Source of the DNA: a virus
Lineage: Duplodnaviria; Heunggongvirae; Uroviricota; Caudoviricetes
Virus record (IMG/VR): IMGVR_UViG_3300017565_000001
Span: 301,741 to 365,740 of that record
DNA: 64,000 bases
Direction: 5' to 3' (one strand)
Shown here: positions 34,297 to 53,606 of the stretch, one piece after another
Position numbering within the stretch: the first letter of the stretch is position 1
How the letters are laid out: each line of letters opens with the position of its first letter
The notes under the pieces: model-generated
Seen by the model: the letters and a program-made list of their open reading frames with translations, nothing else
What the model was told of the DNA's origin: nothing
The model's database searches: none
Made by a program: the position numbers and the translations under genes

Positions 34297-34442
34297 CTTG
34301 GGGAACATTGTTCCCCAAGTTTTCAATTTGCTCTACTGGAACAAATTGAACGAAGATGCGGCGAAGAGTCTCATCTTCTACCCCAATGGGGTTTAGGCTT
34401 GATGACTTCTCCAGTCGTCTTTTTTCGCAGGCGCAATGCCTG
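34296..34442 (+). ncRNA. Candidate structured RNA / leader (six tandem hairpins)
   Basis: Consecutive stems at 34296-320, 34322-350, 34352-378, 34380-392, 34401-419 (+T6) and 34428-442. Confidence 0.45.
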
Positions 34443-34448: not shown

Positions 34449-35768
34449 ATGGAACTCACCCTAGCGACATTCCTGGGTATCGCCCTTGGAATAATTTCTG
34501 GCATATTGCCTGGCATCGGATCAGCCAGCATCATGCTTACCTTCTACATGATCCTGATCGCTTTTGATCCCTTGAATGCAATGGTCTGTTATCTGGCCCT
34601 TGTAATCAGTAGTCAATACGTGGCGAGTCTCACCGCAATTTACACCGGTATTCCCGGAGCCGAAAGTTCATTCCCTACAGCAAAAGAAAGCCATAATCTC
34701 ATCAGCATGGGATTGACGCAAACTGCCGTCGCTCAGAACGCTCTCGCGTCTGTAGTGGGCAATAGTGTGGGTATGGTTCTTTTGATCTTGTTCATCCCCC
34801 TCGCAACCAAGATCCTTGGGATCTTTGGAGCAGCCCTACAGCTGACGATCATCATGGCTTCAGTACTCGTTGTGATCCTCACTACTGAACGTCGCTTGGC
34901 TGCCCTTATATCAATTCTACTCGCTTTCTCACTTATGTATTTGGGGCCAAACGCGCACACCTTTCAAGTGATTGATCTGGGGATGAATTTTCTGAGTGGT
35001 GGCCTGTCATGGGTAGCACTCACAATGGGAGCCATTATCGGACATGCGATGAACTCCATGAAAGGATACCAGAAAGTACAAATCAACACCCAAGGGGTTA
35101 TGGGTTTCAACCTAGCCATGCAGTCACTCAAGAATAAATGGGGTGCGTTGATGCGTGGATCATTTGTGGGATTCTTCGTGGGTCTAGTTCCCGGCCTAAG
35201 CTATATCTTGAGTTCAACGGTTTGCTATCAAGTTGAACAAAAGATTGGACAATCCAAGAAACTCAATGATAAGGATCGAGTTCTCAGCAGTATCATGAGT
35301 TCAGATGCAGCGCATTGTTCAGGCACTCTTGCAATGCTTCTTCCCTTGTTGGCTTTTGGTGTGCCAATTACTGCGAGTGAGGGGGTGATTTATAACATCA
35401 TCACTCTGTCAACAACCACCAAAGATTTACTGGCAAGTATCTACGATAATTGGTTTGTCATCGCACTTGTCATATTATTCGTGAATATGATTTCCATGTT
35501 CACAGCATGGAAATTAGGTAGCAAACTCGTCTCAGTACTCATGTTGCCACGTATGTTCTTGATGTCTTTGATTCTGATCATCAGTCTCCTAGCAGTCATT
35601 TACATCGCTTCAATGACCGGCACAATTTGGCTGTCGGTGGCCACATTTGTCCTGATAGGACTTGTGTTCTTTGTAACACGGATGAACCCGCTACCGTTCA
35701 TCTTCGGAGTCCTTGTCTTTAACCTGTTGCAGTCACTCATAGTGAGTGTCAGCCAACTCTACTTTTGA
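34449..35768 (+). CDS. TctA-like tripartite transporter permease
   Basis: About 11-12 TM segments; GILPGIG, GIPG, GLVPGL, PLLAFGVP repeats typical of TctA; start re-assigned to ATG 34449. Confidence 0.75.
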   Translation: MELTLATFLGIALGIISGILPGIGSASIMLTFYMILIAFDPLNAMVCYLALVISSQYVASLTAIYTGIPGAESSFPTAKESHNLISMGLTQTAVAQNALASVVGNSVGMVLLILFIPLATKILGIFGAALQLTIIMASVLVVILTTERRLAALISILLAFSLMYLGPNAHTFQVIDLGMNFLSGGLSWVALTMGAIIGHAMNSMKGYQKVQINTQGVMGFNLAMQSLKNKWGALMRGSFVGFFVGLVPGLSYILSSTVCYQVEQKIGQSKKLNDKDRVLSSIMSSDAAHCSGTLAMLLPLLAFGVPITASEGVIYNIITLSTTTKDLLASIYDNWFVIALVILFVNMISMFTAWKLGSKLVSVLMLPRMFLMSLILIISLLAVIYIASMTGTIWLSVATFVLIGLVFFVTRMNPLPFIFGVLVFNLLQSLIVSVSQLYF

Positions 35769-35772
35769 TTAT

Positions 35773-36657
35773 ATGAACATTTCTAAATTTTTCGCATCAG
35801 CTTTTGCTGCTCTGATTCTGTCGGCATCTGCCGTAGCTCAACCCACAGTAAACGTACTTCGTTTGGCTCCCCCAGGGGCCGGAACGGCAGCATGGGCGGA
35901 AGCTATTTCTCAAACACTGACTGAGAACGGCTATACGACCAATATTCTGGGTTTTAAGAATTGCCAAGAAGGTGCAAAGTGGCTGAAGGATAATCCCAAG
36001 GAGCCAGTCGTAGCGATGAACTTTAGCGACCCGTTCTTGTTGAATATCGCCGAACCGTCCAATCCTGCCGGTTGCGGGTTTCCAGTAAATGAACAGTCCC
36101 TAGTGGCCGTTGCTGGTAAGTGGTTCCACTTTATTTGTGGCCACGCAGATGCCGGTGGTCTGAAGGGTTTGCTGGCAAGTGATGGCGCAAAGGTTGGTTC
36201 TTGGAACAGCCCAGTACAAATGAAGATCGTTCAAGATCAATTGACTGATATTGGCGTTAAGAACTTCAAGGTCATCGGCTATGCGGCTGGTAAAGATCAA
36301 CTCCAGGCGTTCGTTTCTGGTGATACACAATACATCATCCTGAGTTCCGAATCGTTGGCTAAAGGTCTCCCAAATGCTGAATGTTTCGCAACTTCAGCAG
36401 AACCCGCCATCGCTGCCGGTATGAACCGCACGTCATATTCCGAACTGAATCCACAAGTACGTCACCAAGATAGCGGCCTTTGGCCCATCATTGTTGGCTA
36501 CAACGTTGATATGACGAAGGTTCGAGAAATCCTGGGTGCTTCTGGCAATCACGGCGTTCTGCAACAATCCCTCAGCAAGAATTATATCCCGGTGTTTGAT
36601 TCAATCGAAACTCAACTCCGTGATATCAATAAGCGAGCTCAAGGCATCAAACAATGA
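35773..36657 (+). CDS. TctC/Bug-like periplasmic substrate-binding protein
   Basis: Signal peptide, APPGAGT loop, VIGY...QAFVSGD; follows tctA-like gene. Confidence 0.6.
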   Translation: MNISKFFASAFAALILSASAVAQPTVNVLRLAPPGAGTAAWAEAISQTLTENGYTTNILGFKNCQEGAKWLKDNPKEPVVAMNFSDPFLLNIAEPSNPAGCGFPVNEQSLVAVAGKWFHFICGHADAGGLKGLLASDGAKVGSWNSPVQMKIVQDQLTDIGVKNFKVIGYAAGKDQLQAFVSGDTQYIILSSESLAKGLPNAECFATSAEPAIAAGMNRTSYSELNPQVRHQDSGLWPIIVGYNVDMTKVREILGASGNHGVLQQSLSKNYIPVFDSIETQLRDINKRAQGIKQ

Positions 36658-37754
36658 AGCATTATTACCGCATCGGGGACGAAAAATACATCAACGCCAT
36701 TGAGGCGTGGAGTCGCATTCGTTCCTTACAGGCAGTCAATCAACTGACTACCTTCGAACTAGTTCTCGAAGCCGGTAAGCTTCAGCATTATGACTGGCAA
36801 CAATCCACCACGAAAACGATCGAAAGTCTAGAAGAAGAGTATGCGACTCGTATTCGTGGTGAATACCAATATGTGCGGTTGCTGTATAGCGGAGGGTCGG
36901 ACAGTTACTCAGTAGCTGACGCCTTCTTGCGGAGCGGTAACCCCATAGACGAATTCATTTTGTATGAATGGCAGACTATGGAAAATGTCTGCATTGACGC
37001 TGCCAACAATACCGCAATGAAGATCCGTTGGCTTAAGGATATGCATGCCAAATATGGTCTTGATTGCGGCAAGATCTCAGTCATAACAATAGACCAGAAA
37101 GTTCACGAACGCCACTTCCAAAAGGATTGGTTTCTGAAGTCTGCTGGTCATGCTGGAACTGAAAGCTTCAATGTCAACCACATGGCTGACATGATCGATT
37201 TGTGCCCTCTTCCACCTGGTGTTACCAACTATGTGGATTTGATGGGTTTTGAGAAACCACGATTGTTTGCTGATGACAATATGATTTGGTTTCAAATGAA
37301 CGACAAGAATACTATGTATGGCGCCAGGAAGCAGGAGGAACCTCACATTTGGTTCTATTTGTCCGGCGATGCTCCTGAGTTGATTCGAGCACAATGCCAA
37401 GGCGCTATCCGGGTAGCCAAGATGTTATTCCCCAGAATGCCTTTGAAGGATGCACTGCACAAATTGCAGAACGACAAGAATTACTACCACGAATGGTGTT
37501 ATTCAGTTGGGCGCCGCACAAGCAAGTTTCAGAATTCTTTCGTGTTGCTGGCAAAGAACGTCGGTCAATCAGCAAGTATGAACAATGGTCGATACCTTCA
37601 CATCGATCAATATGCTGGAGAACGGGCTTCTGCGTGGAAAGCATATGAAGAATACGTGGATGTAGTGAAGGATTTGGGCCAGGGTTCAATCGTACCTGGT
37701 ATCAAAACTCAGAAATTCGTATTGGAGAAGAACTATGTTCACAGTCATTGGTAA
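36654..37754 (+). CDS. PP-loop (adenine nucleotide alpha-hydrolase / asparagine synthase-like) protein
   Basis: LLYSGGSDS PP-loop, GFEKP. Confidence 0.65.
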   Translation: MKHYYRIGDEKYINAIEAWSRIRSLQAVNQLTTFELVLEAGKLQHYDWQQSTTKTIESLEEEYATRIRGEYQYVRLLYSGGSDSYSVADAFLRSGNPIDEFILYEWQTMENVCIDAANNTAMKIRWLKDMHAKYGLDCGKISVITIDQKVHERHFQKDWFLKSAGHAGTESFNVNHMADMIDLCPLPPGVTNYVDLMGFEKPRLFADDNMIWFQMNDKNTMYGARKQEEPHIWFYLSGDAPELIRAQCQGAIRVAKMLFPRMPLKDALHKLQNDKNYYHEWCYSVGRRTSKFQNSFVLLAKNVGQSASMNNGRYLHIDQYAGERASAWKAYEEYVDVVKDLGQGSIVPGIKTQKFVLEKNYVHSHW

Positions 37755-38412
37755 TATAAGAAACCTGCCATCTAGAGAAGAGCTTATGGCAGGAAGTGGA
37801 GGATTCACACCCAAAGAACAATTGGCAGCCGATCCCAAATTCGTGCCTCTTAGGTACAGTTCACAGCAACAGGCCCTAGACATAATTTCGTCTAAGACTG
37901 GTGCCGATACGAAGACTGCGAATTTTGCCAATGCTCCTGGATTTCAACGAGTTGGTTTGTCTGATGAAGTTGTCAATCGACTGGCTGAAATATTGAAGCT
38001 CACCAAACCTCAAGCTAGACTGCAAGTGTTGGAACCTGGCAATGTGACAATGATGCATCTGGATGATTTGGATCTGGGTTACATAAATCCCATTGAGGAA
38101 TCTCTAAAGACTATCACATTTACCGATCAGGAACGAGAGCAGTTTCGTGATGATGTGCGCTCAGCCACCAGGTATTTGATCATGTTGGAAGACTGGCAAT
38201 GGGGACAAGGAATGATGTTTCACGACAAAACGCTGACCGGTTGGAAAGCGGGTGACATCATTTATTGGGATTGGCCAACTGTCGCACATTCAACATTCAA
38301 TACTAGCTTTTGGCCTCGAGGTTTGATTCGCATTACTGGTCTTCAAACTGATGGTTCTAGAAAAATAAACGAATGGGCGCTAAACGGCGGCCGCATATTG
38401 GTTGAATATTAA
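37735..38412 (+). CDS. Cupin / Fe(II)-2OG dioxygenase-like protein
   Basis: EPG..MHLD (HxD), distal HSTFN and R; WKAGD. Confidence 0.65.
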   Translation: MFTVIGNIRNLPSREELMAGSGGFTPKEQLAADPKFVPLRYSSQQQALDIISSKTGADTKTANFANAPGFQRVGLSDEVVNRLAEILKLTKPQARLQVLEPGNVTMMHLDDLDLGYINPIEESLKTITFTDQEREQFRDDVRSATRYLIMLEDWQWGQGMMFHDKTLTGWKAGDIIYWDWPTVAHSTFNTSFWPRGLIRITGLQTDGSRKINEWALNGGRILVEY

Positions 38413-39389
38413 TGGCAAAAGTATTGGTGACTGGAAGCAGTGGGTTCATCGGGCACAATGTCGTGAATCAGTTAAATGGTCATACCGTATATGGTCTCGA
38501 CAACTGTGACTCATATGCTAGTCTTAATCAATTCGAACTCAACTCATTGATTTGTGAACGCATGGATTCCATACGTGATACTGGGGTTGATTTTCAAGAT
38601 CTGTATCAAGACATCAGGGAACCTTTTGAGGATGAGCACGGTCCACTTCTGGGGCATTTCAACATTCATCCTGAAATCGTTATTCACCTAGCCAGTTTTC
38701 CACGCCAATACGAAGTACAGTTGGCGCCAGCCCAAGCCAGTGCTACAATGGTGGGCGGCCTTTTGAATGTTTTAGAGGCGGTGAGACAAACGTGTAAGCG
38801 ATTTGTCTTTGTGAGTTCGAGCATGGTTTATGGTGACTTTCAAAACCTCACTACCGAAAGTCACCCTCTAAACCCCAATACTCTGTATGGTATCCTTAAG
38901 CAAACAGGTGAACAGATAGTGTGTGATTTCTGTTCCAAGAATGGCATCGAATATACCATCATCCGGCCCAGTGCCGTTTATGGTGAACGCGATGTTTCCA
39001 ATAGACTGGTTGGAAAGTTTTTGACAGCGGCTCGCCGTGGAGAAACCCTATTGGTCAAGGGCCCCGAGGAAGTGTTGGATTTCACCCATGTGAGTGATGT
39101 GGCTCGAGGTATGGTTTTGGCAGCGTTCTCACCAAACGCTGCCAATCGTGCCTACAATTTGACTAGATCAAGCGAAACTCCTCGAACCATTCAAGACGCC
39201 GCAAATCTTGCTGTATCTCTTATGGGAAACGGCAACATCCAGGTTCTAAATCGTGATGCTTCCTTCCCATCCAGAGGGACTTTATCTATTCAGCAAGCCA
39301 GGGATGACTTCGGATATAACCCAACCATTGACATCGAACAAGGTTTCGCACAATATGCAAAATGGATTTCTGGACGTTCCGTTCAATAA
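38412..39389 (+). CDS. NAD-dependent epimerase/dehydratase
   Basis: GSSGFIG, SSSMVYG, YGILK (YxxxK), DFTHVSD. Confidence 0.92.
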   Translation: MAKVLVTGSSGFIGHNVVNQLNGHTVYGLDNCDSYASLNQFELNSLICERMDSIRDTGVDFQDLYQDIREPFEDEHGPLLGHFNIHPEIVIHLASFPRQYEVQLAPAQASATMVGGLLNVLEAVRQTCKRFVFVSSSMVYGDFQNLTTESHPLNPNTLYGILKQTGEQIVCDFCSKNGIEYTIIRPSAVYGERDVSNRLVGKFLTAARRGETLLVKGPEEVLDFTHVSDVARGMVLAAFSPNAANRAYNLTRSSETPRTIQDAANLAVSLMGNGNIQVLNRDASFPSRGTLSIQQARDDFGYNPTIDIEQGFAQYAKWISGRSVQ

Positions 39390-40443
39390 CGTCAAGCTGC
39401 AGAATCAATCCGTAAAAGAGGAACTGATGGAAGCCATCAGTTCTGTTCTGGATTCAAATCAAGTGCTTGATGGTCCTCACAGAGAAGAACTTGAGGCAAA
39501 TATTGCTCAGATCACTGGACGTAAACACGCCATTGTCACCCATAGTGGCACTGCTGCACTCGGTATCATATCTAAGGCGTTTTATCAACCAAATCGATAT
39601 GTGGATTTGCCAGCAGTTTCGTTCATTGCCACCGCAAACGCTTTCAAGAATGATGGCTGGCGTCTTTCCTTCTACAACAATCTAAATGTGAGTGTCATAT
39701 CACAAGACGTGGCATTAATCGTTGGTGTTGGGCTATTTGGGAAACCTTGCTATATGTCCACCATGGGAGTTCCCTATGTGGAAGACGCCTGTCAAAGTTG
39801 GTTAGCATCACCCTGGATGCAACCGTATAGCTCCAGGCACACACAAGTCATAAGCTTCGATCCCACAAAAAATATAGCCGGGTTGGGTAATGGTGGCGCA
39901 ATAGCTACTGATGACGAAATATTGTCGAGGTTCGTCCGTAAGTACATCAATCACGGAAAAGGTCCTGATGGTTTCGGTATGGTTGGGATGAATCTAAGAA
40001 TGTCAGAACTGGAGTGCGCAACGCTGAATGTGAAGCTCAAACATATGGAAAGCTGGCAACAGAGGCGTAGAGCTATAGCCATGTTTTACTTGAATGAATT
40101 CGCAAATACGCCACAAGTTGAAACAGTTATGAAACACCAAGACATTTGGAATCACGGTCTACAGAAGTTCGTGATATCCGTTCCTGGTGAAGATCGTGAT
40201 GCGCTTGTTGCTTATTTGAGCAATCGTGGAATTGAATGCAAGATTCATTACGAGAAAACCATGTTTGAATATGGATTCTTGAATGACTTTGAAGATCATG
40301 ATGCTTATTATTTGCGTATTCACGACGAATTGAAAACAACAATGGCCGGATGGTTGAGTCTGCCGTTTTATCCCGAATTGACGGCAGACCAGATGCATCA
40401 TGTCGTCAACAGCGTTGACGCATACTTTTCAGAAAAGAATTGA
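39355..40443 (+). CDS. DegT/DnrJ/EryC1/StrS sugar aminotransferase
   Basis: SGTAAL, SFIATANA, EDACQS, SFDPTKNI (PLP Lys), SLPFYP; start re-assigned to 39355. Confidence 0.9.
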   Translation: MQNGFLDVPFNNVKLQNQSVKEELMEAISSVLDSNQVLDGPHREELEANIAQITGRKHAIVTHSGTAALGIISKAFYQPNRYVDLPAVSFIATANAFKNDGWRLSFYNNLNVSVISQDVALIVGVGLFGKPCYMSTMGVPYVEDACQSWLASPWMQPYSSRHTQVISFDPTKNIAGLGNGGAIATDDEILSRFVRKYINHGKGPDGFGMVGMNLRMSELECATLNVKLKHMESWQQRRRAIAMFYLNEFANTPQVETVMKHQDIWNHGLQKFVISVPGEDRDALVAYLSNRGIECKIHYEKTMFEYGFLNDFEDHDAYYLRIHDELKTTMAGWLSLPFYPELTADQMHHVVNSVDAYFSEKN

Positions 40444-41438
40444 TCCAACCACTTCCATTCGTAGCTTGCTAGAAGCTTCGTATAATCCCCACCAACAGAC
40501 GTGAAGTACAGGAGCGCATCGTGCGCTCCTTTTTGCGACCAATCACCGTATAGGGCGTGGGAAGGGGCCAGCCAGCGTTCTAGGCGGTAACTTGCTTCCT
40601 GTTCTCCACGCTCACTGTAAAGTTTCAACTTCAATGCTTCCCTGAAGGCCGTGCGCCAAGCATGTTGGGGGCTGGTATTAAACACGGCCGTACCAGACAA
40701 TCGATTTACTTCTTCGTATGGTTGCGCCAACGTGAAATCAATCTCATCACCTGGGTTTACGAGCACTAGCTTCTTGCAATAGGCAATCACAGCTTGATGG
40801 CCGTAAACCAATCCATTTACTGGATTTTCAGCCATGAACACATAGTGGCGATCTTCGTATTTTGCAGGGGTCCAGCTAAAGTCAAAGTCAGGATAGATTT
40901 TGATCTTCGCAAATACAGCAAAGAAGTGTTCTGTATTGCTTGCTTGTGCCGCAGTCTTATAGGCTGCCGATCGTCCAGTCACACCATCAACCCTAACTAC
41001 TCTATTGGGAATATGATCGGTGACTTCTTGTAGAAGAGACCAATGCTCTTCAGCGGTTGATTCCCCGTTTGAAATGAATACGATATCCAGGGGATCATTC
41101 TTAACAAAAGACGAACGTTGATTGATGACACGAACCTCGTTATTGAATATAGCTCGTTCATCTGTTATTTCCAATTTCTTGGGGATTAGGGCCACTCCCA
41201 AGGATTCATTGGAGTTTCGGCAACAATGCACCAAGTCCTGATCCCATGGTTCCACCGTGTAATCAAAATTGAAATTGTCCAAGACCAGCATGTCATCCCA
41301 CACCACCCAATAGTATTTGGTGAACGATTTGCGGCGGGCTTCAGCTATTGAACCAACAGCTTTGATTCGTGGAAATCTATTTTTGAGTTTCTGGTATTGG
41401 TCAGAAGGATTATTGGTTATCAGGAATATGTCGTACAT
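40398..41438 (-). CDS. GT-A-like glycosyltransferase (paralogue of 47015..47935)
   Basis: DIVFISNGE, RVDGVTG, NGLVYG, AWRTAFRE; partial internal duplication. Confidence 0.6.
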   Translation of the reverse strand: MYDIFLITNNPSDQYQKLKNRFPRIKAVGSIAEARRKSFTKYYWVVWDDMLVLDNFNFDYTVEPWDQDLVHCCRNSNESLGVALIPKKLEITDERAIFNNEVRVINQRSSFVKNDPLDIVFISNGESTAEEHWSLLQEVTDHIPNRVVRVDGVTGRSAAYKTAAQASNTEHFFAVFAKIKIYPDFDFSWTPAKYEDRHYVFMAENPVNGLVYGHQAVIAYCKKLVLVNPGDEIDFTLAQPYEEVNRLSGTAVFNTSPQHAWRTAFREALKLKLYSERGEQEASYRLERWLAPSHALYGDWSQKGAHDALLYFTSVGGDYTKLLASYEWKWLDQFFSEKYASTLLTT

Positions 41439-41440
41439 GA

Positions 41441-42346
41441 TCAGAATTGCATGTTCTTTTTCCACTGCGATTTGACGACAGTGGTCTGGCCCACTTTACC
41501 ACATGCTCGTTGACATGTGACATGGGGATCAGTCGTTAGTCGATTGATGATAGTATCTATCACCCGATCTTTCGGAATATCCCGTATGCCGTGGTCCGAC
41601 TCAATATCAGCCTTGGTAGCGATATAACAACACGGGTACCATTCACCTAACGAATTCACGAACACACTTCGATCTCGTAGGGCTTCGCATTCTATTCCTT
41701 GAATTTCTGGTTCCTTGTACTCACTAACCTTCTTGAGCCAAAAGACCGTTTGATGAACTTGCCTTTCGGTTTCTTTCAATCGGAACCACAGGAAGCCCAT
41801 AGAGCGCGCCAAAGCCTCTGCTTCATCGACCTGATGTTTGTTATGCTCAAACACCAAATAATCCCAGTGAGCGTGTCCTCCCGCGTCTATGAATGCTTGG
41901 GCGTTAGTCATTACCTTCGACCATACGGCATCACGGCGATAGATGTGATTAGTATCTTCCAATCCATCTATAGACCAGATGACAAAGTCCAGGGGTTGAT
42001 TTAAGATCCCAGCCAATTCCCGCCACCAGGCCGCGTTCCGTAAACTACCATTCGTATTCATCCCAAGCTCGATGTCTGGGTTACATTCACGAAAATACCG
42101 GTAGATATCCAGACAATCTTTAGCCATAGCAGGTTCACCAAAGTTGCCACACATGAACATTTTGCGAAGACCACGAATGAACTCTGGACTGAAGGTTTGC
42201 TTTGCTCTTTCCAGAGTCATTTCACCATGACGTAGTGTTTCGTTTGGCAAATCACCTTCAGTTCTGCGGCATTGAGGGCACCGTAGGTTGCAATTAGTGG
42301 TGACTTCAAGATGTAAAACATCCGCTTCGTGTTGTAATGATGTCAT
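41441..42346 (-). CDS. Radical SAM enzyme with C-terminal Twitch-like domain
   Basis: CNLRCPQC, GNFGEP, NTNG, SIDG; C..PCC..CQRAC. Confidence 0.9.
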   Translation of the reverse strand: MTSLQHEADVLHLEVTTNCNLRCPQCRRTEGDLPNETLRHGEMTLERAKQTFSPEFIRGLRKMFMCGNFGEPAMAKDCLDIYRYFRECNPDIELGMNTNGSLRNAAWWRELAGILNQPLDFVIWSIDGLEDTNHIYRRDAVWSKVMTNAQAFIDAGGHAHWDYLVFEHNKHQVDEAEALARSMGFLWFRLKETERQVHQTVFWLKKVSEYKEPEIQGIECEALRDRSVFVNSLGEWYPCCYIATKADIESDHGIRDIPKDRVIDTIINRLTTDPHVTCQRACGKVGQTTVVKSQWKKNMQF

Positions 42347-43056
42347 AGAGTATAAGGTTTGGTTGGTACCACAAAACTACTCGAATACAACCCAATGCCA
42401 TTCAGAATACGCATGTCGTCCAAACAACCATCAAAATACCGTTGATTGGTAAAGAAGCCACCCACATAACAGGAACCACCAAAGCTATCAAAGTTCTGAA
42501 CTTGATTGAGTGTGGTATCCAGAACTCCATTTACGAAGATCATGAATACGTTGTTGATGCGAGTTATCGCCACGTGCGTCCAAGTTTGTGGCGATATTGT
42601 GATGTTACCCAGGAGAAGTACCGAGTTGGTGATGTAGCTGTATAGGCGAATCTTACCCAGGTTGTTTATTCCCACCATGAGAAAATTCCCCGCTGCCGAA
42701 GCTCCCATGGTCAGGATCGGACTATGGACTACGCTTGCACTGACATATTGATTCAACCAACAAAAACATTCAATGGTAAAATCGTTTGTCCCCAATACCA
42801 ACTTATTGATCTTCGGGACATTCACATATTGCTGATTGGTGGACGATGAGCCGCGCAGGTCCAAGGAACCACCAAACTTAGAAAGAGTGTTGGTTATTTT
42901 GGCGTTCCCTACTATCGAGATGGGGCCATCTGGAGAGGTTGCAACTATTTGAGTAGAACCTTCTTCACCATCAAAATGAGACGCGAATCCCACTTGGTCT
43001 CGATACTGTGATTCGGGTGAAGATGAAGCAGACAAAAGCTTAGTAGTTAAATTCAT
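42343..43056 (-). CDS. LamG/ConA-like domain protein
   Basis: SKFGGS, DFTIECF, WTHVAITR, FVNG, FDGCLDDMRI. Confidence 0.85.
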   Translation of the reverse strand: MNLTTKLLSASSSPESQYRDQVGFASHFDGEEGSTQIVATSPDGPISIVGNAKITNTLSKFGGSLDLRGSSSTNQQYVNVPKINKLVLGTNDFTIECFCWLNQYVSASVVHSPILTMGASAAGNFLMVGINNLGKIRLYSYITNSVLLLGNITISPQTWTHVAITRINNVFMIFVNGVLDTTLNQVQNFDSFGGSCYVGGFFTNQRYFDGCLDDMRILNGIGLYSSSFVVPTKPYTL

Positions 43057-43093
43057 TTGGGTTCTTGCTATAAAATCGAGCGCTATCCGTTAT

Positions 43094-43258
43094 TTACCTA
43101 TCAAGTTTGCGAATATCTACCTGGAGTTCTGTCAGGGTAAAGAGACCCTTATGACTCTCCATGAATGTACCAGTTACCAATTCCCATAAGTCTACCTGGA
43201 GATTCCCCTCATCATCAGGAATTGATCCCCCAATCCCATTGATATCCTTGAACATCAT
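43094..43258 (-). CDS. Possible small protein, 54 aa (not in ORF track)
   Basis: MMFKDINGIGGSIPDDEGNLQVDLWELVTGTFMESHKGLFTLTELQVDIRKLDR; GGGGA upstream; stop overlaps GGTAAATA late motif. Confidence 0.35.
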   Translation of the reverse strand: MMFKDINGIGGSIPDDEGNLQVDLWELVTGTFMESHKGLFTLTELQVDIRKLDR

Positions 43259-43302
43259 CCGTAAAGAATGATCCCCTAGATACTATCACACACCATTAGA
43301 AC

Positions 43303-43329
43303 AAAGAGGAACATTTTCTGTTCCTCTTT
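43303..43329. terminator. Stem-loop terminator
   Basis: AAAGAGGAACA-TTTTC-TGTTCCTCTTT. Confidence 0.65.
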
Positions 43330-43331
43330 CT

Positions 43332-44030
43332 TTATTTCCATGTCAATGGATCGAAGGTTTGTGTCCTTGCCACTAGTTCATATCTGAACTGTGATATCAA
43401 TCCCCTGTAGCCATACCTAGCTGAATTACCACCCGTGTAGCCACTTCTATCACCGATACCACCAATATACATGTTTAGATTCGACGGATTTGCTCCTTGT
43501 GCTGGACCGAATGGTTTACCATCAATAAATCCCGTTATAGTTCCAGTTGAGCGTTCGTATGCCATTGCCACATGACGCCAGGTACCTACTGGTGATGCAG
43601 TGTCGCTATAGGCTCCTGATACTGAGCCACCAACAGATCCTGTCTTGGGGTACGTTGCCGTTCCTGTTCCACTCATAACCACGTAATTGAGATTCAGACC
43701 GCTAAATGGTCCAATCTGCAGAATCCAGGCTTGTGGTGGTGAATTGCCATATTGCGGCTGATAACTGGTTGGATTTATGAAGAAGCCAACCGTGAACGAA
43801 TTCAATCCCAGGGTTGGTGCCAGATCGTATTGCAAGCAGGATGCGCCTGTATCACTCCACAGGTTGCAAGAGTCACCATTCGGTGCGATTGTCGCTGATG
43901 TTGCAGTACCAGAACCAGCCCAAGTGGTTCTGGGAGTCATTGATGAAAATTGAATAATACCACGAGGACCATCTTGCTCAGTCTCACCGTCGTATGCAGC
44001 AAACAACAGTTTGTATACGATAGGGATCAT
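43332..44030 (-). CDS. LamG/ConA-like domain protein
   Basis: SFTVGFFI, WRHVAMAY, FIDG, YRGLISQFR. Confidence 0.75.
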   Translation of the reverse strand: MIPIVYKLLFAAYDGETEQDGPRGIIQFSSMTPRTTWAGSGTATSATIAPNGDSCNLWSDTGASCLQYDLAPTLGLNSFTVGFFINPTSYQPQYGNSPPQAWILQIGPFSGLNLNYVVMSGTGTATYPKTGSVGGSVSGAYSDTASPVGTWRHVAMAYERSTGTITGFIDGKPFGPAQGANPSNLNMYIGGIGDRSGYTGGNSARYGYRGLISQFRYELVARTQTFDPLTWK

Positions 44031-44053
44031 AAAGGTGTGCTCAAAACCTTTAT

Positions 44054-45592
44054 TTACTTTGATGGTGGTACAAAGTCCTGTGAACCTGGATTTGTCTTAC
44101 TCTTGTCTAGGATCCATCCTTCCTGTTTGGCTCTTTCTTTCAATTCTCTTTCGTGGGGCCATTCCTCGACCCTGCCCTTCTCCAGCTTGATAGGAATAAG
44201 CTTGGTATCGGGAATGCTGTCAAACCATTCAACCAGTTGTGGGAATGTAGCCCTGAAGTCCTTGCCCCTACGAGCGTCGTATTGCTTGAAGAAACTGCGG
44301 AAGTCGCGCTCTCTAGATTTCAGGCTGCTGGTATGAGCATGACCCTCAGTGACTTCTCTCAGGTATTGGATGAGGCGAACGATACCATCGTGTTCGTGTT
44401 GTTGAAGAATTCCCCTACCCTTCAAATGTTCAGGTTGGTAATCCCAATTGTGCTTCAACCAGGTTTCAATGTGGTCGGCGCGTTCCAACCTAATATGTTC
44501 TGGTAGTGTCACTGCACTCTGAAAACTAGGGAATCTCAGAATATTGAAGCTCATGCTGCAATGATGCATGCCGTATTGTTCTTTGATTCTATTCAATGAA
44601 TCCATAAAGTCCGTGATGCTAAACAGGCAAAGACTGTTTACGGTCATCATCACGTGTGTGGCAGCAAAATTACCATCCTGAATGCACGTTTTTAGGTTGT
44701 GCAACCATTCATCCCAGTGCAAGCCATCCCTGATATATTCAGCATGAGCTCCGAATGATTCATTGCTAGTGTATAGATGAATATCCTTGAACGAATGACT
44801 GGCAGTAACGAGTCGCTTCAACAGTTTGGCGTTAACACCCAGATTGCTATTCAGGGCGAGACGAACCTTACATTCAGGATGTTCTTGCCACCAATCCATA
44901 AGCTTCCAGAAGTCTTGACTCATGGTAGCCTCACCACCAGTAATTCGGAGCTCAGTCAGACTATGCTGCAACTCTGCTTCCCACCACTGCCAGAACGCCG
45001 CCAAATAGGGATTATCGGTATTCCGGATACCATAGGGTTGTGCCCAGGAACCGTCCTGTTGGAAAGCACCACCACCATCACTCACTAGATCCTGGTACGG
45101 ACCGTTCTTCTTGACATCAGCCATCCAGGTGGTAGAGAAGCTGGGATTACAATACGAACAAGCGAAATTGCAGTTGGCGTCGAAGGCAATTTCCAAAGTC
45201 TTCAAGTCAACGTCACCCGTGGCACCATGAACTTCGGCAGCTTGTGCCAACTCTTCGTCGGTGTAAATGACACTCTTGAACACACGATCACTGACTTGAT
45301 CCTTACCCAAGTCTTCAATCTTCCAGCAGTAATCGCACTCTTCGGGACGTTCACCCCTGAGCATTTGTTCCCTGACCATCTTCTTGTATGAAGTATTGTG
45401 AATCGCCTTGTAATTGGCCAACACTTCTTCAACTGAAATCTTGTGAGCAGGTGGGTGATGACAGCTTGCAGTCGTACCACTACCCAGCCAGATCGTTGCG
45501 TTATACCACTTTGCACCACAGAATGACGGGCTGATGGGATCAACTACTCGATCCCTGTATTCAACGTATGACTCAGTTTGAATTTTTGGCAC
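44054..45592 (-). CDS. Radical SAM enzyme with N-terminal Twitch/SPASM-like domain
   Basis: FCGAKW..SCHH..CDYCW then CNFACSYC, ITGGE. Confidence 0.9.
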   Translation of the reverse strand: MPKIQTESYVEYRDRVVDPISPSFCGAKWYNATIWLGSGTTASCHHPPAHKISVEEVLANYKAIHNTSYKKMVREQMLRGERPEECDYCWKIEDLGKDQVSDRVFKSVIYTDEELAQAAEVHGATGDVDLKTLEIAFDANCNFACSYCNPSFSTTWMADVKKNGPYQDLVSDGGGAFQQDGSWAQPYGIRNTDNPYLAAFWQWWEAELQHSLTELRITGGEATMSQDFWKLMDWWQEHPECKVRLALNSNLGVNAKLLKRLVTASHSFKDIHLYTSNESFGAHAEYIRDGLHWDEWLHNLKTCIQDGNFAATHVMMTVNSLCLFSITDFMDSLNRIKEQYGMHHCSMSFNILRFPSFQSAVTLPEHIRLERADHIETWLKHNWDYQPEHLKGRGILQQHEHDGIVRLIQYLREVTEGHAHTSSLKSRERDFRSFFKQYDARRGKDFRATFPQLVEWFDSIPDTKLIPIKLEKGRVEEWPHERELKERAKQEGWILDKSKTNPGSQDFVPPSK

Positions 45593-47015
45593 GATACACC
45601 TCCTTGCATGACTCCAAGAATTCCTTGTATTCAGGGAAAGTCTTCAGGAAGTCTGTTCCGCGACGACGATCATATTCGGGATAGAACGCACCAATGTCAT
45701 TCATATGATTGAACATTTGGTCCTGGGGAATTTCTTCCATCATGTATTCACCCAAGCGTTCAATCTGATCAATCTCCTCCAAGTAAAATCTGCCCTTGGA
45801 ATCTGGACTGTTGTGACGCATCAACCCAGTCATGTAGGTTTTGATTTCCTGCAAGTAACGTTCCTTGATTTCCCGGGGTGCGACCCTGACATCCTGAAAC
45901 GGTGGCCAACGCAGATAATTGATCATCATTGGCAACCTGTTCATCGCATCGTCGGGGTTGAATTCGGTCCGCATGGTCCAAATGTCTTGCATGAAATCCT
46001 TGAACGTACTCAGGCTCAACATGTTGAATGTGATCATGAAGTTAAGTCTCGACCATTCACCAGTTTGCGACAAGAACTTGCGGCAGTTGGCAATGAATGA
46101 ATCGTAGTTCATACCGAAGCGAATGTATTCTGCGGCAGGCCCAGCTGCTTCACAACTGGTGAACACATCAAAAGCCTTGATGTTTGGTGCGATCTCGTTA
46201 TACAGCTTGATGAACTTATCCATGAGCTCATCAGGTACCTGGAGATTCGTATTAATGGCCAGGGTAAGATCAGCTCGTGGATTGTCTCTGATCTCTTCAA
46301 GAACGCGCCATGTATGCTTACTCAACAGGGGCTCACCACCCGTGATGCGGAATGTATGCAGGCTCTTGTAAAGATCAGGCCACCATTCCCAGAAAGCATC
46401 CACGTATGGGTTCTCTTCCCTGTTGGGAATAGGCATTTTGCCTATCTTTTCCAGCCACTGAATGTTACCCACTGAATAAGTGGTGCCCTGATATGGACCG
46501 TATTGTTTGACCTCTTCCATCCACTTGGACGAAATGTCAGGCGTGCAATACATGCACTTCAGATTGCAGGTGTTGTCAAATGCGACTTCCAGGTAGGACG
46601 GATTGACGTCCTGGCCTTCCTTTGATTCGATGACTTTCTGCAGGTTGGGATATGCCCAACCCATGTCAGCACTCTTGTATGTGCGATCACTGAAGTGATT
46701 ACCAGGAAGGTCTTCCACTTTCCAACAATAACTGCATTCAGGAGGACGTTCACCACTCAACATCTTCTTGCGAACTTCGACCTTGTATTCGGTGTTGTGC
46801 AGAGCTGATGGCTTACGTTTTATCTCGCTGATGGGGATCTTGTGCGTGGATGGGTGGTGACAAGAATGGGTGTGACCGTTCATCAAATAAACGGTACTTT
46901 GCAGCCACTTTGCCAAACACATTGTGGGTGAGCCACTTTGCTTTTCCACATCATCCATCCGCTCAGCCATTTTTTCAATGTTGATCTGATTGGGTGACTT
47001 GGGGGTATCGGACAT
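45573..47015 (-). CDS. Radical SAM enzyme with N-terminal Twitch/SPASM-like domain
   Basis: MCLAKW..SCHH..CSYCW then CNLKCMYC, ITGGEP. Confidence 0.9.
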   Translation of the reverse strand: MSDTPKSPNQINIEKMAERMDDVEKQSGSPTMCLAKWLQSTVYLMNGHTHSCHHPSTHKIPISEIKRKPSALHNTEYKVEVRKKMLSGERPPECSYCWKVEDLPGNHFSDRTYKSADMGWAYPNLQKVIESKEGQDVNPSYLEVAFDNTCNLKCMYCTPDISSKWMEEVKQYGPYQGTTYSVGNIQWLEKIGKMPIPNREENPYVDAFWEWWPDLYKSLHTFRITGGEPLLSKHTWRVLEEIRDNPRADLTLAINTNLQVPDELMDKFIKLYNEIAPNIKAFDVFTSCEAAGPAAEYIRFGMNYDSFIANCRKFLSQTGEWSRLNFMITFNMLSLSTFKDFMQDIWTMRTEFNPDDAMNRLPMMINYLRWPPFQDVRVAPREIKERYLQEIKTYMTGLMRHNSPDSKGRFYLEEIDQIERLGEYMMEEIPQDQMFNHMNDIGAFYPEYDRRRGTDFLKTFPEYKEFLESCKEVYRAKNSN

Positions 47016-47935
47016 TAGATGTTCCTGAGTTTGAAAGTTTCGCGGAAGAACGCACTAGTATCCGCGTCTAGTGTTGGTACACTGATCTTGGTGGTTTCCT
47101 TGATGTAAGCACCAAGTTTCTTGATTTCTTCTTCAACAAAGAAGAGTGCATGGTCTTCTGTTCGTTGCTTGCCCATATTGGGCAGATAGATCTGATGAGA
47201 CACTTCAGCCCAGTATTGGTTGAACCAGTCATAATCACGGATCACGGAGAAGTCCCATGTGGCGTCACACATCTTGCACCATGCCAAACGAGTGCCGTAA
47301 ATAGCCCAGAGACCATGCTCCACATCAGCACCAACTGACGACCAGATGCGTAGGTTACGCAAATTTACGCCGTGTAGTTGCGTCTTCATAAGTTCGGGTT
47401 TGATGCGCTGGCCCCTATCTAGGGCCAATTTGACACCCTCTCGGAACCCCACACGAAACGCCTGGTATGGGGAACCGTTGTTCCAGACTTCACTGAATGC
47501 CTTGTGAATACCCTTGTAGTTTTCATCCCAACAGAAATCCACGGCCTGTCCATCTTCAGACAGTTCATGGCTACGCATATTCAGGGCAAATTCTTTGGAC
47601 CACAATTTCAGGCCACCATTACCGTACATCAAACCATTCATCATGTTGATGCCGTTCCAACAGAAGCTCTTGTTGCGATCCAGGGTATCGTCTAATTCGA
47701 TTGTTTCGTCGAAGAATTCTGGCAACACAATGTTGTCAGCATCGACTGTGATGAACCACGGAGTTTCGCTTTGTTCCGCGCAAGCTCTATGAGCTGCGTC
47801 AAAGCCCTTTACGCCATGGACTCGTTTAGCCCAAGGCGCCTTGTCAAGTAAATCAGCCCAATGCTTTTCGGCATTGGGCTCGTCGTAACTCAAAAAGAAA
47901 ATATCAAATTCACTGATGCCGTAAGTCTTTTTCAT
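47015..47935 (-). CDS. GT-A-like glycosyltransferase
   Basis: DIFFLSYDEP, RVHGVKG, TVDADN (DxD), NGLMYGNGG, FRVGFREG. Confidence 0.65.
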   Translation of the reverse strand: MKKTYGISEFDIFFLSYDEPNAEKHWADLLDKAPWAKRVHGVKGFDAAHRACAEQSETPWFITVDADNIVLPEFFDETIELDDTLDRNKSFCWNGINMMNGLMYGNGGLKLWSKEFALNMRSHELSEDGQAVDFCWDENYKGIHKAFSEVWNNGSPYQAFRVGFREGVKLALDRGQRIKPELMKTQLHGVNLRNLRIWSSVGADVEHGLWAIYGTRLAWCKMCDATWDFSVIRDYDWFNQYWAEVSHQIYLPNMGKQRTEDHALFFVEEEIKKLGAYIKETTKISVPTLDADTSAFFRETFKLRNI

Positions 47936-48849
47936 TCTTGTTTTCGTATGAAGAGCATCTGATCAGCAATCGGGAACCCCGACACGCCAAACTTTGCTCC
48001 TGCTTTCTTCTTGACCTTGGTTGTCAGACCACCTTTCTCGATCAATTCGTTGACATCGTAGTCGATCGTGTCAACAAAGATCATGGGGTCACCGGCCTTA
48101 GTCAAGAACACTGACGGCTTGGAACTTTCTGGCGTGTACAGCTGGGGCTCACCAACAACCTTGAGCTCAAGTGTGTTGTTATTTATGAGATGATACACTA
48201 CCACTCCTTCAAAGTCTTCTGGTACCTGAGTTGCTTGTTTGAAGACAGTCAATTTGTTCATATGCCCAGTTCTTACATGGGCGGTCATCCAGTCTGCATT
48301 CCGAATCACCAATTGATAGTTACGGAACACCTTGATAGTGCTCACCGCATAATCACTGATTTGGTTCTTGAATTGGTAACGAACTGAACCTCGTTCCACC
48401 AACTGCTTGACATTGATCTTGAATTCACCCAAGACCATAGACGGATCCTTTTGCTTATGCAGAATGAAGCGGAGTTCCTGTTCAGTGATATTCACCAATG
48501 GCACACCGACAAATTTCTGAGGAATTGATACTTCAAAAGTGTTGCTCTTCAGGTAAAGGGCGACCGTGATTGTTGGGACGTTTGAATCGCCAGTTGAATC
48601 CTGGGGGATTGCGATGACTGTGCCGGCATCACTTGGAACGGAATCCAAAACATTCTGTTGAAGGTTGAAAACACCATCCCCAGTTTCAACAACAAACCAC
48701 TCATCAACGCTATATTCAGCAGTGATGAACTTCAGAGCTACTTCCTCATCCACGATATGGAAATCGTAATCACCAAATTCTTCTTGAGGGGCTGGGGCGA
48801 CTGCTTTGATGGCACCTTGATTGTCATGGTAAATGTAGAATGAAGTCAT
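47932..48849 (-). CDS. Hypothetical protein
   Basis: Coupled ORF with internal repeat (KQKDPSM / KAGDPMI). Confidence 0.7.
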   Translation of the reverse strand: MTSFYIYHDNQGAIKAVAPAPQEEFGDYDFHIVDEEVALKFITAEYSVDEWFVVETGDGVFNLQQNVLDSVPSDAGTVIAIPQDSTGDSNVPTITVALYLKSNTFEVSIPQKFVGVPLVNITEQELRFILHKQKDPSMVLGEFKINVKQLVERGSVRYQFKNQISDYAVSTIKVFRNYQLVIRNADWMTAHVRTGHMNKLTVFKQATQVPEDFEGVVVYHLINNNTLELKVVGEPQLYTPESSKPSVFLTKAGDPMIFVDTIDYDVNELIEKGGLTTKVKKKAGAKFGVSGFPIADQMLFIRKQE

Positions 48850-49718
48850 AGTCCTAGTTTCTCCTCATAGGTGGCAATCATATCGTCTGTAAGGAATTCT
48901 TTGATATGATAGTGGAGTGGCGCAATTTGGCGACAACGTCCGATCTTTAGTTCCAGATCTTCTGTGAAATAAACGCCGATGTGTTTTGTCCAATCCTCTG
49001 TAATTGATTTATCGTCCCAATTTTGCAGTTTGGATTTCATGTGAACAAAATGTGGGAACTTTCTAACCGTATTCGTACACTGATCATCCGCATCGAGCAA
49101 TCGCATAGCAAGGGCAAATACCACATCTGTACTAACCTCTGCTGGACGTGGCTCATCAGTAAATTCGTAGCGGAATTTTTCCCAGTTCTGGTAGATGATT
49201 TCGGCCATATCAAACAGTTCTTTGGCCATATCGCTTGACTTGAAAAACATGAATGCCGTGTAAACATTTGACAGCTTGTTTGCCGTAAATGTCTTTCGGT
49301 AAAAGTCACTGGTGATTTCTTCACCCCTGAACGTCAATGCTGTTGTGGCAGCCCATACGTCCTGAAGCTCCAACGTATCCCACCATGCATCGATGTTCTG
49401 CAGGAAAAGCATGTCACAATCCAGCTTGATTGTTTGCTCATACGGAGTCATGTGATAAGCCTTCCATTCATTCTGAAGCTTCCATGACGCATCCTCGGCC
49501 GCATCGCCCCATGGAATTTCAATCACTTCATCAAACACCTTCCGGTATTTCTCAGGCACTTCTTGGCCAGGCGTGATGCCTACTGCCAAGTATGGAACTT
49601 CGACCTGGGTGGCTTTCAGGCTAAGGGCCAGTCCATATGCCAACCGCAAGTAATCGTATGAACCATTTTGTGCGAAGGTGAAGAACCCACGTTTACGTTT
49701 GAAATCTCGTTGACTCAT
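48846..49718 (-). CDS. GT-A glycosyltransferase (GT8-like)
   Basis: TPYEQTIKLDCDMLF (DxD), TDVVFALA, FVHMK. Confidence 0.75.
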   Translation of the reverse strand: MSQRDFKRKRGFFTFAQNGSYDYLRLAYGLALSLKATQVEVPYLAVGITPGQEVPEKYRKVFDEVIEIPWGDAAEDASWKLQNEWKAYHMTPYEQTIKLDCDMLFLQNIDAWWDTLELQDVWAATTALTFRGEEITSDFYRKTFTANKLSNVYTAFMFFKSSDMAKELFDMAEIIYQNWEKFRYEFTDEPRPAEVSTDVVFALAMRLLDADDQCTNTVRKFPHFVHMKSKLQNWDDKSITEDWTKHIGVYFTEDLELKIGRCRQIAPLHYHIKEFLTDDMIATYEEKLGL

Positions 49719-50602
49719 TTTCTATACAACTCAATCAGTTTATCCGCATGGCGGAGGATTGCATATTTGTTCATTGCGTGAACGGTGACGCCCTTTACTT
49801 TGCTCAACAGGAAGCGCCATGATTCGTGTTGATCTTGCGCCAAGAATGTCAGTTCATTCCGGCCCACTTCCATAATATCATCCACATCAAAACTACTCAG
49901 GATTTTGCTTTGAGGGAATGGCTTAAACTCGTCATTCTCCAGGAACCCATTCAACATGTGGATGGCAATACTAAACACGTAATCGTTACGATAAAGCTTG
50001 CCTGGAAACTCATAGACGTACTGATAATATTCGTAATTGGATTTAATTTGCTCAACTAGGTCGAACAGAATTTGTGCTCGTTCACTCTTACGGAAATATA
50101 CCATGGTAGCCCAATACATGGGGATGGACGTGCTATCAAGTCGGCGTTCTGAATCCTTGGGAGGAGTATGAAGCAAAGTCAATGCATCTTTGTTGATGAG
50201 GACTTCTTCGTCATTTCCCCAAACCAAATCAAACATACCGTCTTGCACCAGAACGTCACTGTCCAGAATGATGGTTTCATCGTAAGGCGTCAGTTCGTAT
50301 GCTGTGCTGCGAGTCCCGTTATGCCAAGTCAGATGCTTTACGGTGCTCTTCGTATCCAGGAATTGACGTTGTTTGGATTGACGCTTGAATTCGTATCCAA
50401 TTACTTTGATGTGATCGAAAGCTTGTTTGATTAACTCATCACCCAGACTACTTTGCATCCAATCAAGAGTTCCTTGATCCGTCACTAGACAGACGCTGTT
50501 TTCCCTGAGATTTGCTTTAATCATCAGGGCGCAACAGAGTGCGATTTTGCCATAATCAACTTCTTCGTTGTTATGGGCGTAGATAAGAAATCCTCTACTC
50601 AT
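49715..50602 (-). CDS. GT-A glycosyltransferase (GT8-like)
   Basis: TPYDETIILDSDV (DxD), RNDYVFSIA, HAMNK. Confidence 0.75.
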   Translation of the reverse strand: MSRGFLIYAHNNEEVDYGKIALCCALMIKANLRENSVCLVTDQGTLDWMQSSLGDELIKQAFDHIKVIGYEFKRQSKQRQFLDTKSTVKHLTWHNGTRSTAYELTPYDETIILDSDVLVQDGMFDLVWGNDEEVLINKDALTLLHTPPKDSERRLDSTSIPMYWATMVYFRKSERAQILFDLVEQIKSNYEYYQYVYEFPGKLYRNDYVFSIAIHMLNGFLENDEFKPFPQSKILSSFDVDDIMEVGRNELTFLAQDQHESWRFLLSKVKGVTVHAMNKYAILRHADKLIELYRK

Positions 50603-53605: not shown

Positions 53606-53606
53606 T

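Follow-up and report, generated by a model that had tools for sequence, protein, structure and literature searches.

Gene order and co-inheritance of the enzyme cassette

The window analysed here is a 64,000-nt stretch, in whose coordinates positions are given unless another genome is named. It corresponds to bases 301741-365740 of an IMG/VR phage genome that is 424,529 bp long and has direct terminal repeats. The phage is a member of a group of huge myophages, among them Atu_ph07, Phosso, GAP32 and RsoM2USA. Downstream of the tail-fibre genes, the - strand carries genes for glycosyltransferases (GTs), radical S-adenosylmethionine (SAM) enzymes and LamG-domain proteins, which are met by a + strand arm encoding a transporter and enzymes of sugar metabolism (Table 1). 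An initial annotation, made from the letters of the window, had proposed that this cluster builds an unusual glycan and attaches it to tail proteins or to the host surface.

To describe the conservation of the cluster, gene maps were drawn by BLAST and hidden Markov model searches of IMG/VR loci carrying the core radical SAM gene 45573-47015 (n=34, all viral). This enzyme has an N-terminal twitch domain and is called N-twitch hereafter. A single one-strand order recurs: fibre genes, fibC, the gene of a 115-aa protein, GT8b, GT8a, a gene for a protein of unassigned family (protein X), a GT2-like gene and the N-twitch radical SAM gene. It was seen in about 11 non-redundant lineages, plus RsoM2USA. 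All loci with the GT8 pair and available upstream sequence also carry fibC and the 115-aa protein gene, and the latter is conserved in all loci carrying the pair. The link to the tail module made in the initial annotation, which had named synteny across related phages as a check, is strengthened by this joint inheritance of fibC, the 115-aa protein and the enzyme core.

The same phyletic pattern was obtained in phage records (n=50,697; tblastn for the GT8-like and GT2-like proteins). The N-twitch enzyme, GT8a, the GT2-like protein, the 115-aa protein and fibC each matched only RsoM2USA, in which ORF346-355 are all annotated as hypothetical; ORF349 is the radical SAM gene of this set, ORF350, 352 and 353 are the GT genes and ORF355 encodes a fibre protein. 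In contrast, the neighbouring structural protein 52988-53626 has homologues in 93 jumbo-phage records. Megablast of the cluster region against the phage records gave no match. Two of the about 11 lineages, with full synteny of fibre genes and cassette, are contigs deposited as bacterial metagenome-assembled genomes (MAGs), L039 (PBPT01000082, 'Neomarinimicrobiota') and L044 (JANZYY010000027, 'Fischerella'), both of which look like phage contigs.

Among the fibre-module proteins, fibC contains 20% Ser+Thr and no Cys. The adjacent tail-fibre protein matched PF11962 (7.6e-7) and the tail-fibre family phrog_19602 (2.2e-15). The large upstream protein matched phrog_10938 (E=0) and is collinear with RsoM2USA ORF361, which was found in virions (PMC8504454). 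Both LamG proteins of the initial annotation were recovered with PF13385 (2.5e-17 for 42343-43056 and 1.8e-7 for 43332-44030), the former also with PHROG matches among virion structural proteins and those of the baseplate wedge. For the 115-aa protein, neither PDB nor Pfam gave a match. More generally, no Pfam, PHROG or NCBIfam family was found for the genes starting at 35746, 36654, 37735, 40398, 47932, 50599 and 51057, and profile-to-PDB sequence searches were uninformative for the GT2-like, PP-loop, 115-aa, secreted-protein and fibC families.

Table 1. Genes of the cassette and of the adjoining fibre module, in window coordinates.
Feature	Position	Strand	Basis
TctA-family permease	34449-35768 (ORF opens 34356)	+	PF01970
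Secreted ~300-aa protein, fold unassigned; possibly solute-binding partner	35746-36657	+	N-terminal hydrophobic segment
PP-loop (SGGxDS) ATP-pyrophosphatase-like enzyme, virus-only family	36654-37754	+	motif, Atlas lead
Cupin/2-oxoglutarate (2OG)-oxygenase-like protein	37735-38412	+	HxD...H, Atlas lead
NAD-dependent NDP-sugar epimerase-type short-chain dehydrogenase/reductase (SDR)	38412-39389	+	PF01370, phrog_540
DegT/DnrJ/EryC1 sugar aminotransferase	39253-40443 (true start probably near 39355)	+	PF01041
Degenerate GT2-like paralogue	40398-41465	-	identity to 47015-47935, alignment
Radical SAM enzyme, C-terminal Cys-rich (twitch/SPASM-like) tail	41441-42346	-	PF04055
LamG-domain protein 1	42343-43056	-	PF13385
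LamG-domain protein 2	43332-44030	-	PF13385
N-terminal-twitch radical SAM enzyme, paralogue 2	44054-45592	-	NF033640
N-terminal-twitch radical SAM enzyme, core member	45573-47015	-	NF033640
GT2-like GT-A glycosyltransferase, helical C-terminal domain	47015-47935	-	AF2, Foldseek, VIA
Protein X, internal repeat	47932-48849	-	conserved slot only
GT8-like (glycogenin-like) GT-A glycosyltransferase a (GT8a)	48846-49718	-	profile, AF2, Foldseek
GT8-like GT-A glycosyltransferase b (GT8b), paralogue of GT8a	49715-50602	-	identity, DxD
115-aa conserved protein, heading the enzyme operon in most loci	50599-50946	-	synteny
Fibre-module protein fibC, candidate acceptor	51057-51965	-	co-inheritance
Tail-fibre protein with intramolecular chaperone domain	51965-52933	-	PF11962, phrog_19602
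Conserved structural protein	52988-53626	-	homologues in jumbo phages
Virion structural protein (3102 aa), encoded upstream of the fibre genes	53809-63117	-	phrog_10938

Three GT-A glycosyltransferases and protein X

Four GT-A proteins had been counted in the - arm by the initial annotation. Three of them, GT8a, GT8b and the GT2-like protein 47015-47935, are retained. GT8a and GT8b are paralogues (26% identity) which have in common the DxD motif that is invariant in the alignment of their family. With Pfam, no family was matched by GT8a at E<=10, the GT8 model included, and GT8b gave only a chance-level match to PH_33 (E 0.077). The family profile matched glycogenin (E=1.7e-7), the LDTD of the family being aligned with the DAD of glycogenin. 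Consistently, the AlphaFold2 (AF2) model of GT8a (pLDDT 91) recovered glycogenin in Foldseek (3e-9, probability 1.0), as well as LH3, LARGE1, XXYLT1 and the catalytic domain of UGGT, and in BFVD it matched viral GT8 proteins including those of mimivirus and klosneuvirus.

The AF2 model of the GT2-like protein (pLDDT 89) places the GT-A domain at residues 3-169. Foldseek matches were led by SunS and included PBCV-1 A64R and TarS. VIA Z scores of 8.4-10.4 were obtained with B4GALNT1, CHSY3, SpsA, SunS and A64R; nucleotidyltransferases of the same fold also reach a Z of 8-9. The D65xD67 motif is nearly invariant in the family, and the match to PF00535 stayed below the cut-off (E=0.069, 13.5 bits for 23.3 required). 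This GT2-like family has about 1800 (1817) cluster representatives and no Pfam model. Some bacterial proteins that bear the name glycosyltransferase combine its domain with another GT domain, and the giant proteins P0052 (1735 aa), P0163 (1524 aa) and P0149 (1789 aa) show as many as 12 profile matches in tandem. In longer fused forms of the radical SAM and GT2-like proteins, Pfam gave no informative partner domain, and the only match, a sub-threshold one to T4 gp9/10, was not relied on. The paralogue 40398-41465 (32% identity to 47015-47935) is composed of an N-terminal half-domain and a full domain, and has lost the DxD, as judged by the alignment of its AVFAKIK with the VDxDN of the family.

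For the fourth candidate, protein X, the GT-A assignment was not retained. It carries no DxD, matches no family or PDB entry, has 5 close relatives only and shows an internal duplication in which 'F.L.K..DP' ('F.LTK..DP') recurs near residues 128 and 248. Across loci, distant homologues whose sequence diverges fast fill the same slot, between GT8a and the GT2-like gene. No membrane segments were found in the GTs or in the radical SAM enzymes.

Radical SAM enzymes with an N-terminal twitch

The three radical SAM enzymes, all considered Twitch-type in the initial annotation, which cited BtrN as an example of such sugar-oxidising enzymes, fall into two kinds. Both 44054-45592 and 45573-47015 (36% identical) matched NF033640 (N_Twi_rSAM) over model positions 1-398, with 303.2 and 344.9 bits respectively for a cut-off of 170. 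In an alignment of 25 sequences of this family, C33, C52, C94 and C97 are invariant together with the CX3CX2C motif C150, C154 and C157. The third enzyme, 41441-42346, matched PF04055 (E=2e-9) and phrog_21308 (1.8e-20); it has the CX3CX2C motif and the Cys-rich tail at its C-terminus, and all its NCBIfam matches to SPASM/twitch maturases were sub-threshold. NF033640 is a radical SAM family without a characterised member, and literature searches on the family, on enzymes with an N-terminal twitch and on the cassette gave no published description.

Membership in the BtrN-like sugar dehydrogenases was not supported: the N-twitch profile aligned with BtrN over the SAM motif only (E ~0.09-0.12), and the twitch of BtrN is C-terminal, so that the domain order is reversed. 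As for 41441-42346, its Cys-rich tail is C-terminal, but its best matches are other maturases, below their cut-offs. The best PDB match of the radical SAM profile, 8VPO, a cyclopropyl synthase acting on a peptide made by the ribosome and modified after translation (RiPP), was also set aside, being matched over the core alone.

Outside viruses, as seen in species-representative genomes, the N-twitch family is concentrated in Bdellovibrionota MAGs. Neighbours in 10 bacterial loci include GT1 (5), carbamoyltransferases (4), flagellin (2) and PqqD (2), and further radical SAM/SPASM proteins, GT2, GT7, DUF6071 and DegT. Carbamoyltransferase, GT7 and DUF6071 are recurrent in viral and bacterial contexts alike. 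Arrays of seven to eight N-twitch paralogues were observed in two loci, L043 and L048, on contigs from a Bdellovibrionia and an unclassified MAG.

Sugar-nucleotide and tailoring enzymes of the + arm

Most activities assigned to the + arm by the initial annotation were recovered. The SDR, read there as an NDP-sugar epimerase, matched PF01370 (E=2.3e-36) and the nucleotide-sugar epimerase family phrog_540 (3.5e-41), with GxxGxxG, YxxxK and 'SSSMVYG' present. The DegT aminotransferase matched PF01041 (E=2.2e-51, 175.6 bits for a cut-off of 19.8) and has the pyridoxal-phosphate lysine motif 'SFDPTKN'. Its gene converges with 40398-41465, the two stops at 40443 and 40398 producing a 46-bp overlap of the arms. 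In the PP-loop protein the SGGSDS motif is invariant (10 homologues); no Pfam, NCBIfam or PDB sequence match was obtained, and the fold comes from an Atlas model only, with TM 0.58-0.60 to clusters carrying Asn_synthase/QueC. The protein read earlier as a Fe/2OG-type oxygenase is cupin-like, with H108, D110 and H185 of the HxD...H motif invariant (3 homologues) and Asp_Arg_Hydrox as Atlas structural lead, and it has no Pfam match. Its gene is paired with the PP-loop gene in loci L004 and L087 too.

As for the transporter, the TctA assignment is firm (PF01970, E=1.2e-46, 159.7 bits where 28.9 are required, covering positions 2-422 of the 423 in the model; 13 hydrophobic segments), while its proposed TctC-like partner 35746-36657 was not confirmed. 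Nothing in the whole genome matched the TctC family PF03401 at E<=10, no tctB-sized ORF lies between the transporter genes, and the secreted protein itself has no Pfam or PDB match; its 9 homologues have neither a Pfam match nor an informative name. The TctC identity, for which a signal peptide is the sole support, was set aside as unverified.

A thymidylate-synthase (TS)-family gene, the sole one in the genome, precedes the + arm (33236-34285, +). It has the dUMP-type motif 'PFNIASY' and an insertion of about 50 aa that divides its Pfam match into two stretches, and may be either a synthase or a hydroxymethylase. It adjoins the cassette also in L004, L044 and L087.

Variable content downstream of the core

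Beyond the core, the genes differ from locus to locus. Downstream, the relatives carry additional radical SAM genes, of the N-twitch type and with a C-terminal cluster, GT2-like proteins of several domains, 2OG oxygenases (including the prolyl 4-hydroxylase (P4H) type), GT7, carbamoyltransferases, FkbM methyltransferases, SDRs, RmlC, UDP-glucose dehydrogenase, a PfkB sugar kinase with a cytidylyltransferase, QueC-like PP-loop proteins and LamG proteins. Close relatives also differ. L004 has 41441-42346, 40398-41465, DegT, SDR, cupin and PP-loop genes, but neither TctA and the secreted protein nor the two LamG genes and 44054-45592. L087 has both N-twitch genes (including the orthologue of 44054-45592), 41441-42346, 40398-41465, cupin and PP-loop genes and lacks SDR and DegT; there, the interval of the two LamG genes is filled by a carbamoyltransferase gene and a 308-aa ORF without Pfam match. 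The cassette is therefore modular, and TctA and the secreted protein, missing from both loci, are accessory genes.

In Phosso (L086, PV764938), an unrelated cassette occupies the same post-fibre position (16614-24763). Besides a cupin, it encodes four proteins with a Radical_SAM domain, one of them scoring below the Pfam cut-off, and has five ORFs that Pfam does not match; no GT was detected in it by Pfam. In this group of phages, enzyme cassettes may have a hotspot at the site after the fibre genes.

Promoter-like motifs and hairpins

Late motifs, which resemble the -10 element of T4-type late transcription units, had been noted at 34289 and 43091. The first is exact, TATAAATA (+), and heads the + arm, with an 11-bp hairpin directly after it (34296-34320); the second reads GTAAATA (43091-43097) and lies upstream of LamG gene 42343-43056. 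TAAATA is enriched between genes (10 of 19 sites in the 7.8% of the window that is intergenic), and ATAAATA or CTAAATA precedes each of 51965-52933 and 52988-53626. A terminator-like hairpin (43303-43329) is present 3' of LamG gene 43332-44030.

No TAAATA was found upstream of 50599-50946, at the head of the GT/radical SAM operon, and in this respect the late-motif assignment does not extend to that operon. The gap between fibC and the operon (50970-51040, -) contains instead a GC-rich hairpin (51012-51040), right after the fibre gene, and then a sigma70-like TTGAAC-17-TATCAT, 24 nt before the start of 50599-50946. The enzyme operon may have its own promoter in this site.

A proposed glycosylation cassette attached to the fibre module

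Taken together, the gene content suggests that the cassette very probably builds and transfers a tailored glycan. This is the part of the earlier glycan reading that stands, with three GT-A enzymes, the SDR and DegT in the window and glycan genes in the relatives, among them the GDP-mannose 4,6-dehydratase gene within the tail genes of RsoM2USA. In bacteria, the GT and carbamoyltransferase genes around N-twitch genes and the fusions of the GT2-like domain to a second GT domain hint in the same direction. More specifically, we propose a modular phage glycosylation cassette attached to the tail-fibre module, whose likeliest acceptor is a virion protein of that module, with a probability of about 0.5.

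Enzyme families and folds, catalytic motifs, synteny and co-inheritance are observed, and we infer the substrates, the order of steps, the acceptor and the timing. The epimerase-type SDR and the DegT aminotransferase would make an amino sugar in the cytoplasm; as in the BtrN/BtrS pair, a radical SAM dehydrogenase may supply the keto intermediate for DegT. An amide or amidine and a hydroxyl group would be added by the PP-loop enzyme and the cupin oxygenase. Two retaining GT8-like enzymes and one GT2-like GT-A enzyme would then transfer sugars onto the acceptor, for which the Ser/Thr-rich fibC is the best candidate, and the N-twitch radical SAM enzymes would carry out oxygen-independent tailoring of the sugar or of the growing glycan. 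The 115-aa protein and protein X could act as adaptors or chaperones, and the LamG proteins could be further structural partners.

A virion fibre acceptor, above all fibC, is favoured because of the strict co-inheritance of fibC with the enzymes, the placement of the cassette in the structural block and the resemblance of the LamG proteins to baseplate domains. The structural neighbours of the GTs point in the same direction, since glycogenin, LH3, XXYLT1, SunS and PBCV-1 A64R act on proteins or peptides. So does the lack of lipid-carrier machinery as judged by Pfam (no match to primer GT, flippase, polymerase or ligase families among the cluster ORFs), and neither the GTs nor the radical SAM enzymes have membrane segments.

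Several observations weigh against this proposal. Soluble GTs also act on lipid-linked host glycans and in host polysaccharide pathways, so the missing membrane segments are compatible with a host-surface acceptor. Peptide substrates are suggested by the PqqD and SPASM proteins encoded nearby in some bacterial loci, and the cupin and radical SAM set of Phosso, without Pfam-detected GT, equally fits direct protein modification. Between the fibre gene and the enzyme operon, the hairpin and sigma70-like site replace the TAAATA motif of the fibre genes, so that late co-expression of the GT operon is conjectural. Finally, virion proteomics of RsoM2USA spans 10 abundant bands, and a glycan on any virion of this group is so far a prediction.

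A host surface glycan is the main rival to the fibre acceptor, although we regard it as unlikely. The enzymes would act on host lipid-linked O-antigen, capsule or exopolysaccharide intermediates during a long infection. The consequence would be to alter or mask the receptor of the co-inherited fibre, leading to superinfection exclusion or keeping progeny from being lost on cell debris. A receptor-binding protein and enzymes that modify the receptor would be expected to be inherited together, which agrees with the pattern seen here, and soluble GT8/GT2-type enzymes are typical of O-antigen and capsule clusters. The GT1, carbamoyltransferase and flagellin genes next to the radical SAM family in bacteria, a gene content as variable as that of a surface-polysaccharide locus and the 270-min latent period of RsoM2USA are likewise compatible with it. 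Nevertheless, neither a primer glycosyltransferase nor a flippase, a polymerase, a ligase or a membrane protein of the Gtr type was seen in the cluster by Pfam and membrane-segment analysis, and it lies within the structural block, on the structural strand, with baseplate-like LamG proteins. Furthermore, these phages appear lytic, whereas the known surface-modifying phage GTs are mainly of temperate-phage origin (PMC12619734).

Somewhat less likely still is a direct radical or oxidative modification of fibre proteins or of a small peptide (RiPP-like), with the radical SAM enzymes acting on residues and glycosylation as one step. Most radical SAM enzymes of the SPASM/twitch kind mature peptides or proteins, and such maturases are the best NCBIfam and PDB neighbours of 41441-42346 and of the N-twitch core. 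However, this similarity is restricted to the radical SAM core and far under the family cut-offs. PqqD in 2 of the 10 bacterial loci, P4H-type 2OG oxygenases in relatives, the Phosso cassette after its fibre gene and the peptide S-glycosyltransferase SunS at the top of the Foldseek matches of 47015-47935 would also fit. Against these stand the lack in the window of any precursor peptide or RiPP recognition element (RRE) domain that we could find, the small ORFs having no Pfam match, and the dominance of sugar-nucleotide and sugar-tailoring enzymes among the variable genes.

DNA glycosylation, in which the GTs and tailoring enzymes would decorate a modified phage base and so evade restriction, is unlikely and ranks well below the preceding readings. 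It has a precedent in phage GTs known for DNA hypermodification, with glycans of diverse kinds (Pyle et al. 2024, cited in PMC12619734), and the TS-family gene adjoins the + arm in four loci including the present one. However, this single gene has the dUMP-type Asn, and there is therefore no sign of a dCMP hydroxymethylase. The tblastn match of the GT8-like and GT2-like proteins to RsoM2USA alone among the 50,697 phage records likewise means that no similarity to T-even DNA glycosyltransferase genes was found, and the co-inheritance partner is a fibre protein, not genes of nucleotide metabolism. A free aminoglycoside-like product was set aside because no cluster ORF matched the dehydroquinate-synthase-type (inosose synthase) Pfam family.

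Comparison with known glycosylation systems

Giant viruses and a few actinophages are known to encode the glycosylation of their virions. Like the proposed fibre-directed cassette, the systems which glycosylate the fibrils of Megavirinae and the capsid of the chlorovirus PBCV-1 have their own sugar-nucleotide enzymes, DegT-type included, and several GT-A enzymes. The correspondence extends to structure, PBCV-1 A64R being a match of 47015-47935 and mimivirus and klosneuvirus GT8 proteins matches of GT8a. Those viruses infect eukaryotes, however, and their systems have no fixed tie to one fibre gene; conversely, the glycan of the cassette here is a predicted one. No radical SAM enzyme of this kind is known to us from their glycosylation clusters, a point on which no search was made. 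As here, gene sets are variable, and in Megavirinae they are clade-specific (PMC10117803).

In phages, the closest parallel to the proposed activity is that of mycobacteriophages, whose phage-encoded GTs use host sugar nucleotides. As summarized in PMC12619734, these GTs modify structural proteins, and glycans were found on capsid and tail-tube subunits (Freeman et al. 2023). PMC11256854 describes one or two GTs in such phages. Unlike the present cassette, these systems are without radical SAM, PP-loop, oxygenase and aminotransferase genes, and we found no sequence relation to them, as GT8a, the GT2-like protein and the N-twitch enzyme match RsoM2USA only among phage records.

In the BtrN/BtrS logic of 2-deoxystreptamine aminoglycoside pathways, a twitch radical SAM dehydrogenase forms a ketone which is aminated by a DegT-family enzyme, and GTs and a TobZ-type carbamoyltransferase then follow. 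The enzyme families of this logic match those present here and in L087. BtrN differs from 44054-45592 and 45573-47015 by its C-terminal twitch (E ~0.09 to the N-twitch profile), and these pathways yield a free aminoglycoside whereas the product here would probably be protein-linked. Flagellin and surface glycosylation islands also combine SDR, DegT, a PP-loop amidotransferase and GTs to place tailored amino sugars on a surface filament, and flagellin genes neighbour N-twitch genes in 2 of the 10 bacterial loci. They differ from the present cluster, among whose ORFs no nonulosonic acid synthase or CMP-transferase was matched by Pfam and in which no NCBIfam model was matched by the PP-loop protein.

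We found no earlier description of a conserved cassette of several enzymes, radical SAM chemistry included, that is tied to a tail-fibre gene. The present one gives a biological context to two sizeable families without known function, NF033640 and the GT2-like family of 47015-47935. More tentatively, one could envisage a widespread lineage of huge phages with a swappable unit of fibre and glycan factory, in which a dedicated fibre protein receives a lineage-specific glycan made with N-twitch radical SAM enzymes; we hold this possible rather than probable. If the fibres are indeed glycosylated, this would bear on host range, on recognition by antibodies and defence systems and on phage engineering. 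On the reading of a swappable unit, phages would diversify the chemistry of their receptor-binding organelles through radical reactions on sugars that need no oxygen, a form of host-range or defence evasion so far undescribed in bacteriophages. Every cassette gene is 'hypothetical' in RsoM2USA, the sole cultured carrier, and since this phage can be grown the question is directly testable. In the same genome (L002), a GDP-mannose 4,6-dehydratase-like SDR (ORF358, 25113-26090) is located between the tail sheath gene and a structural gene.

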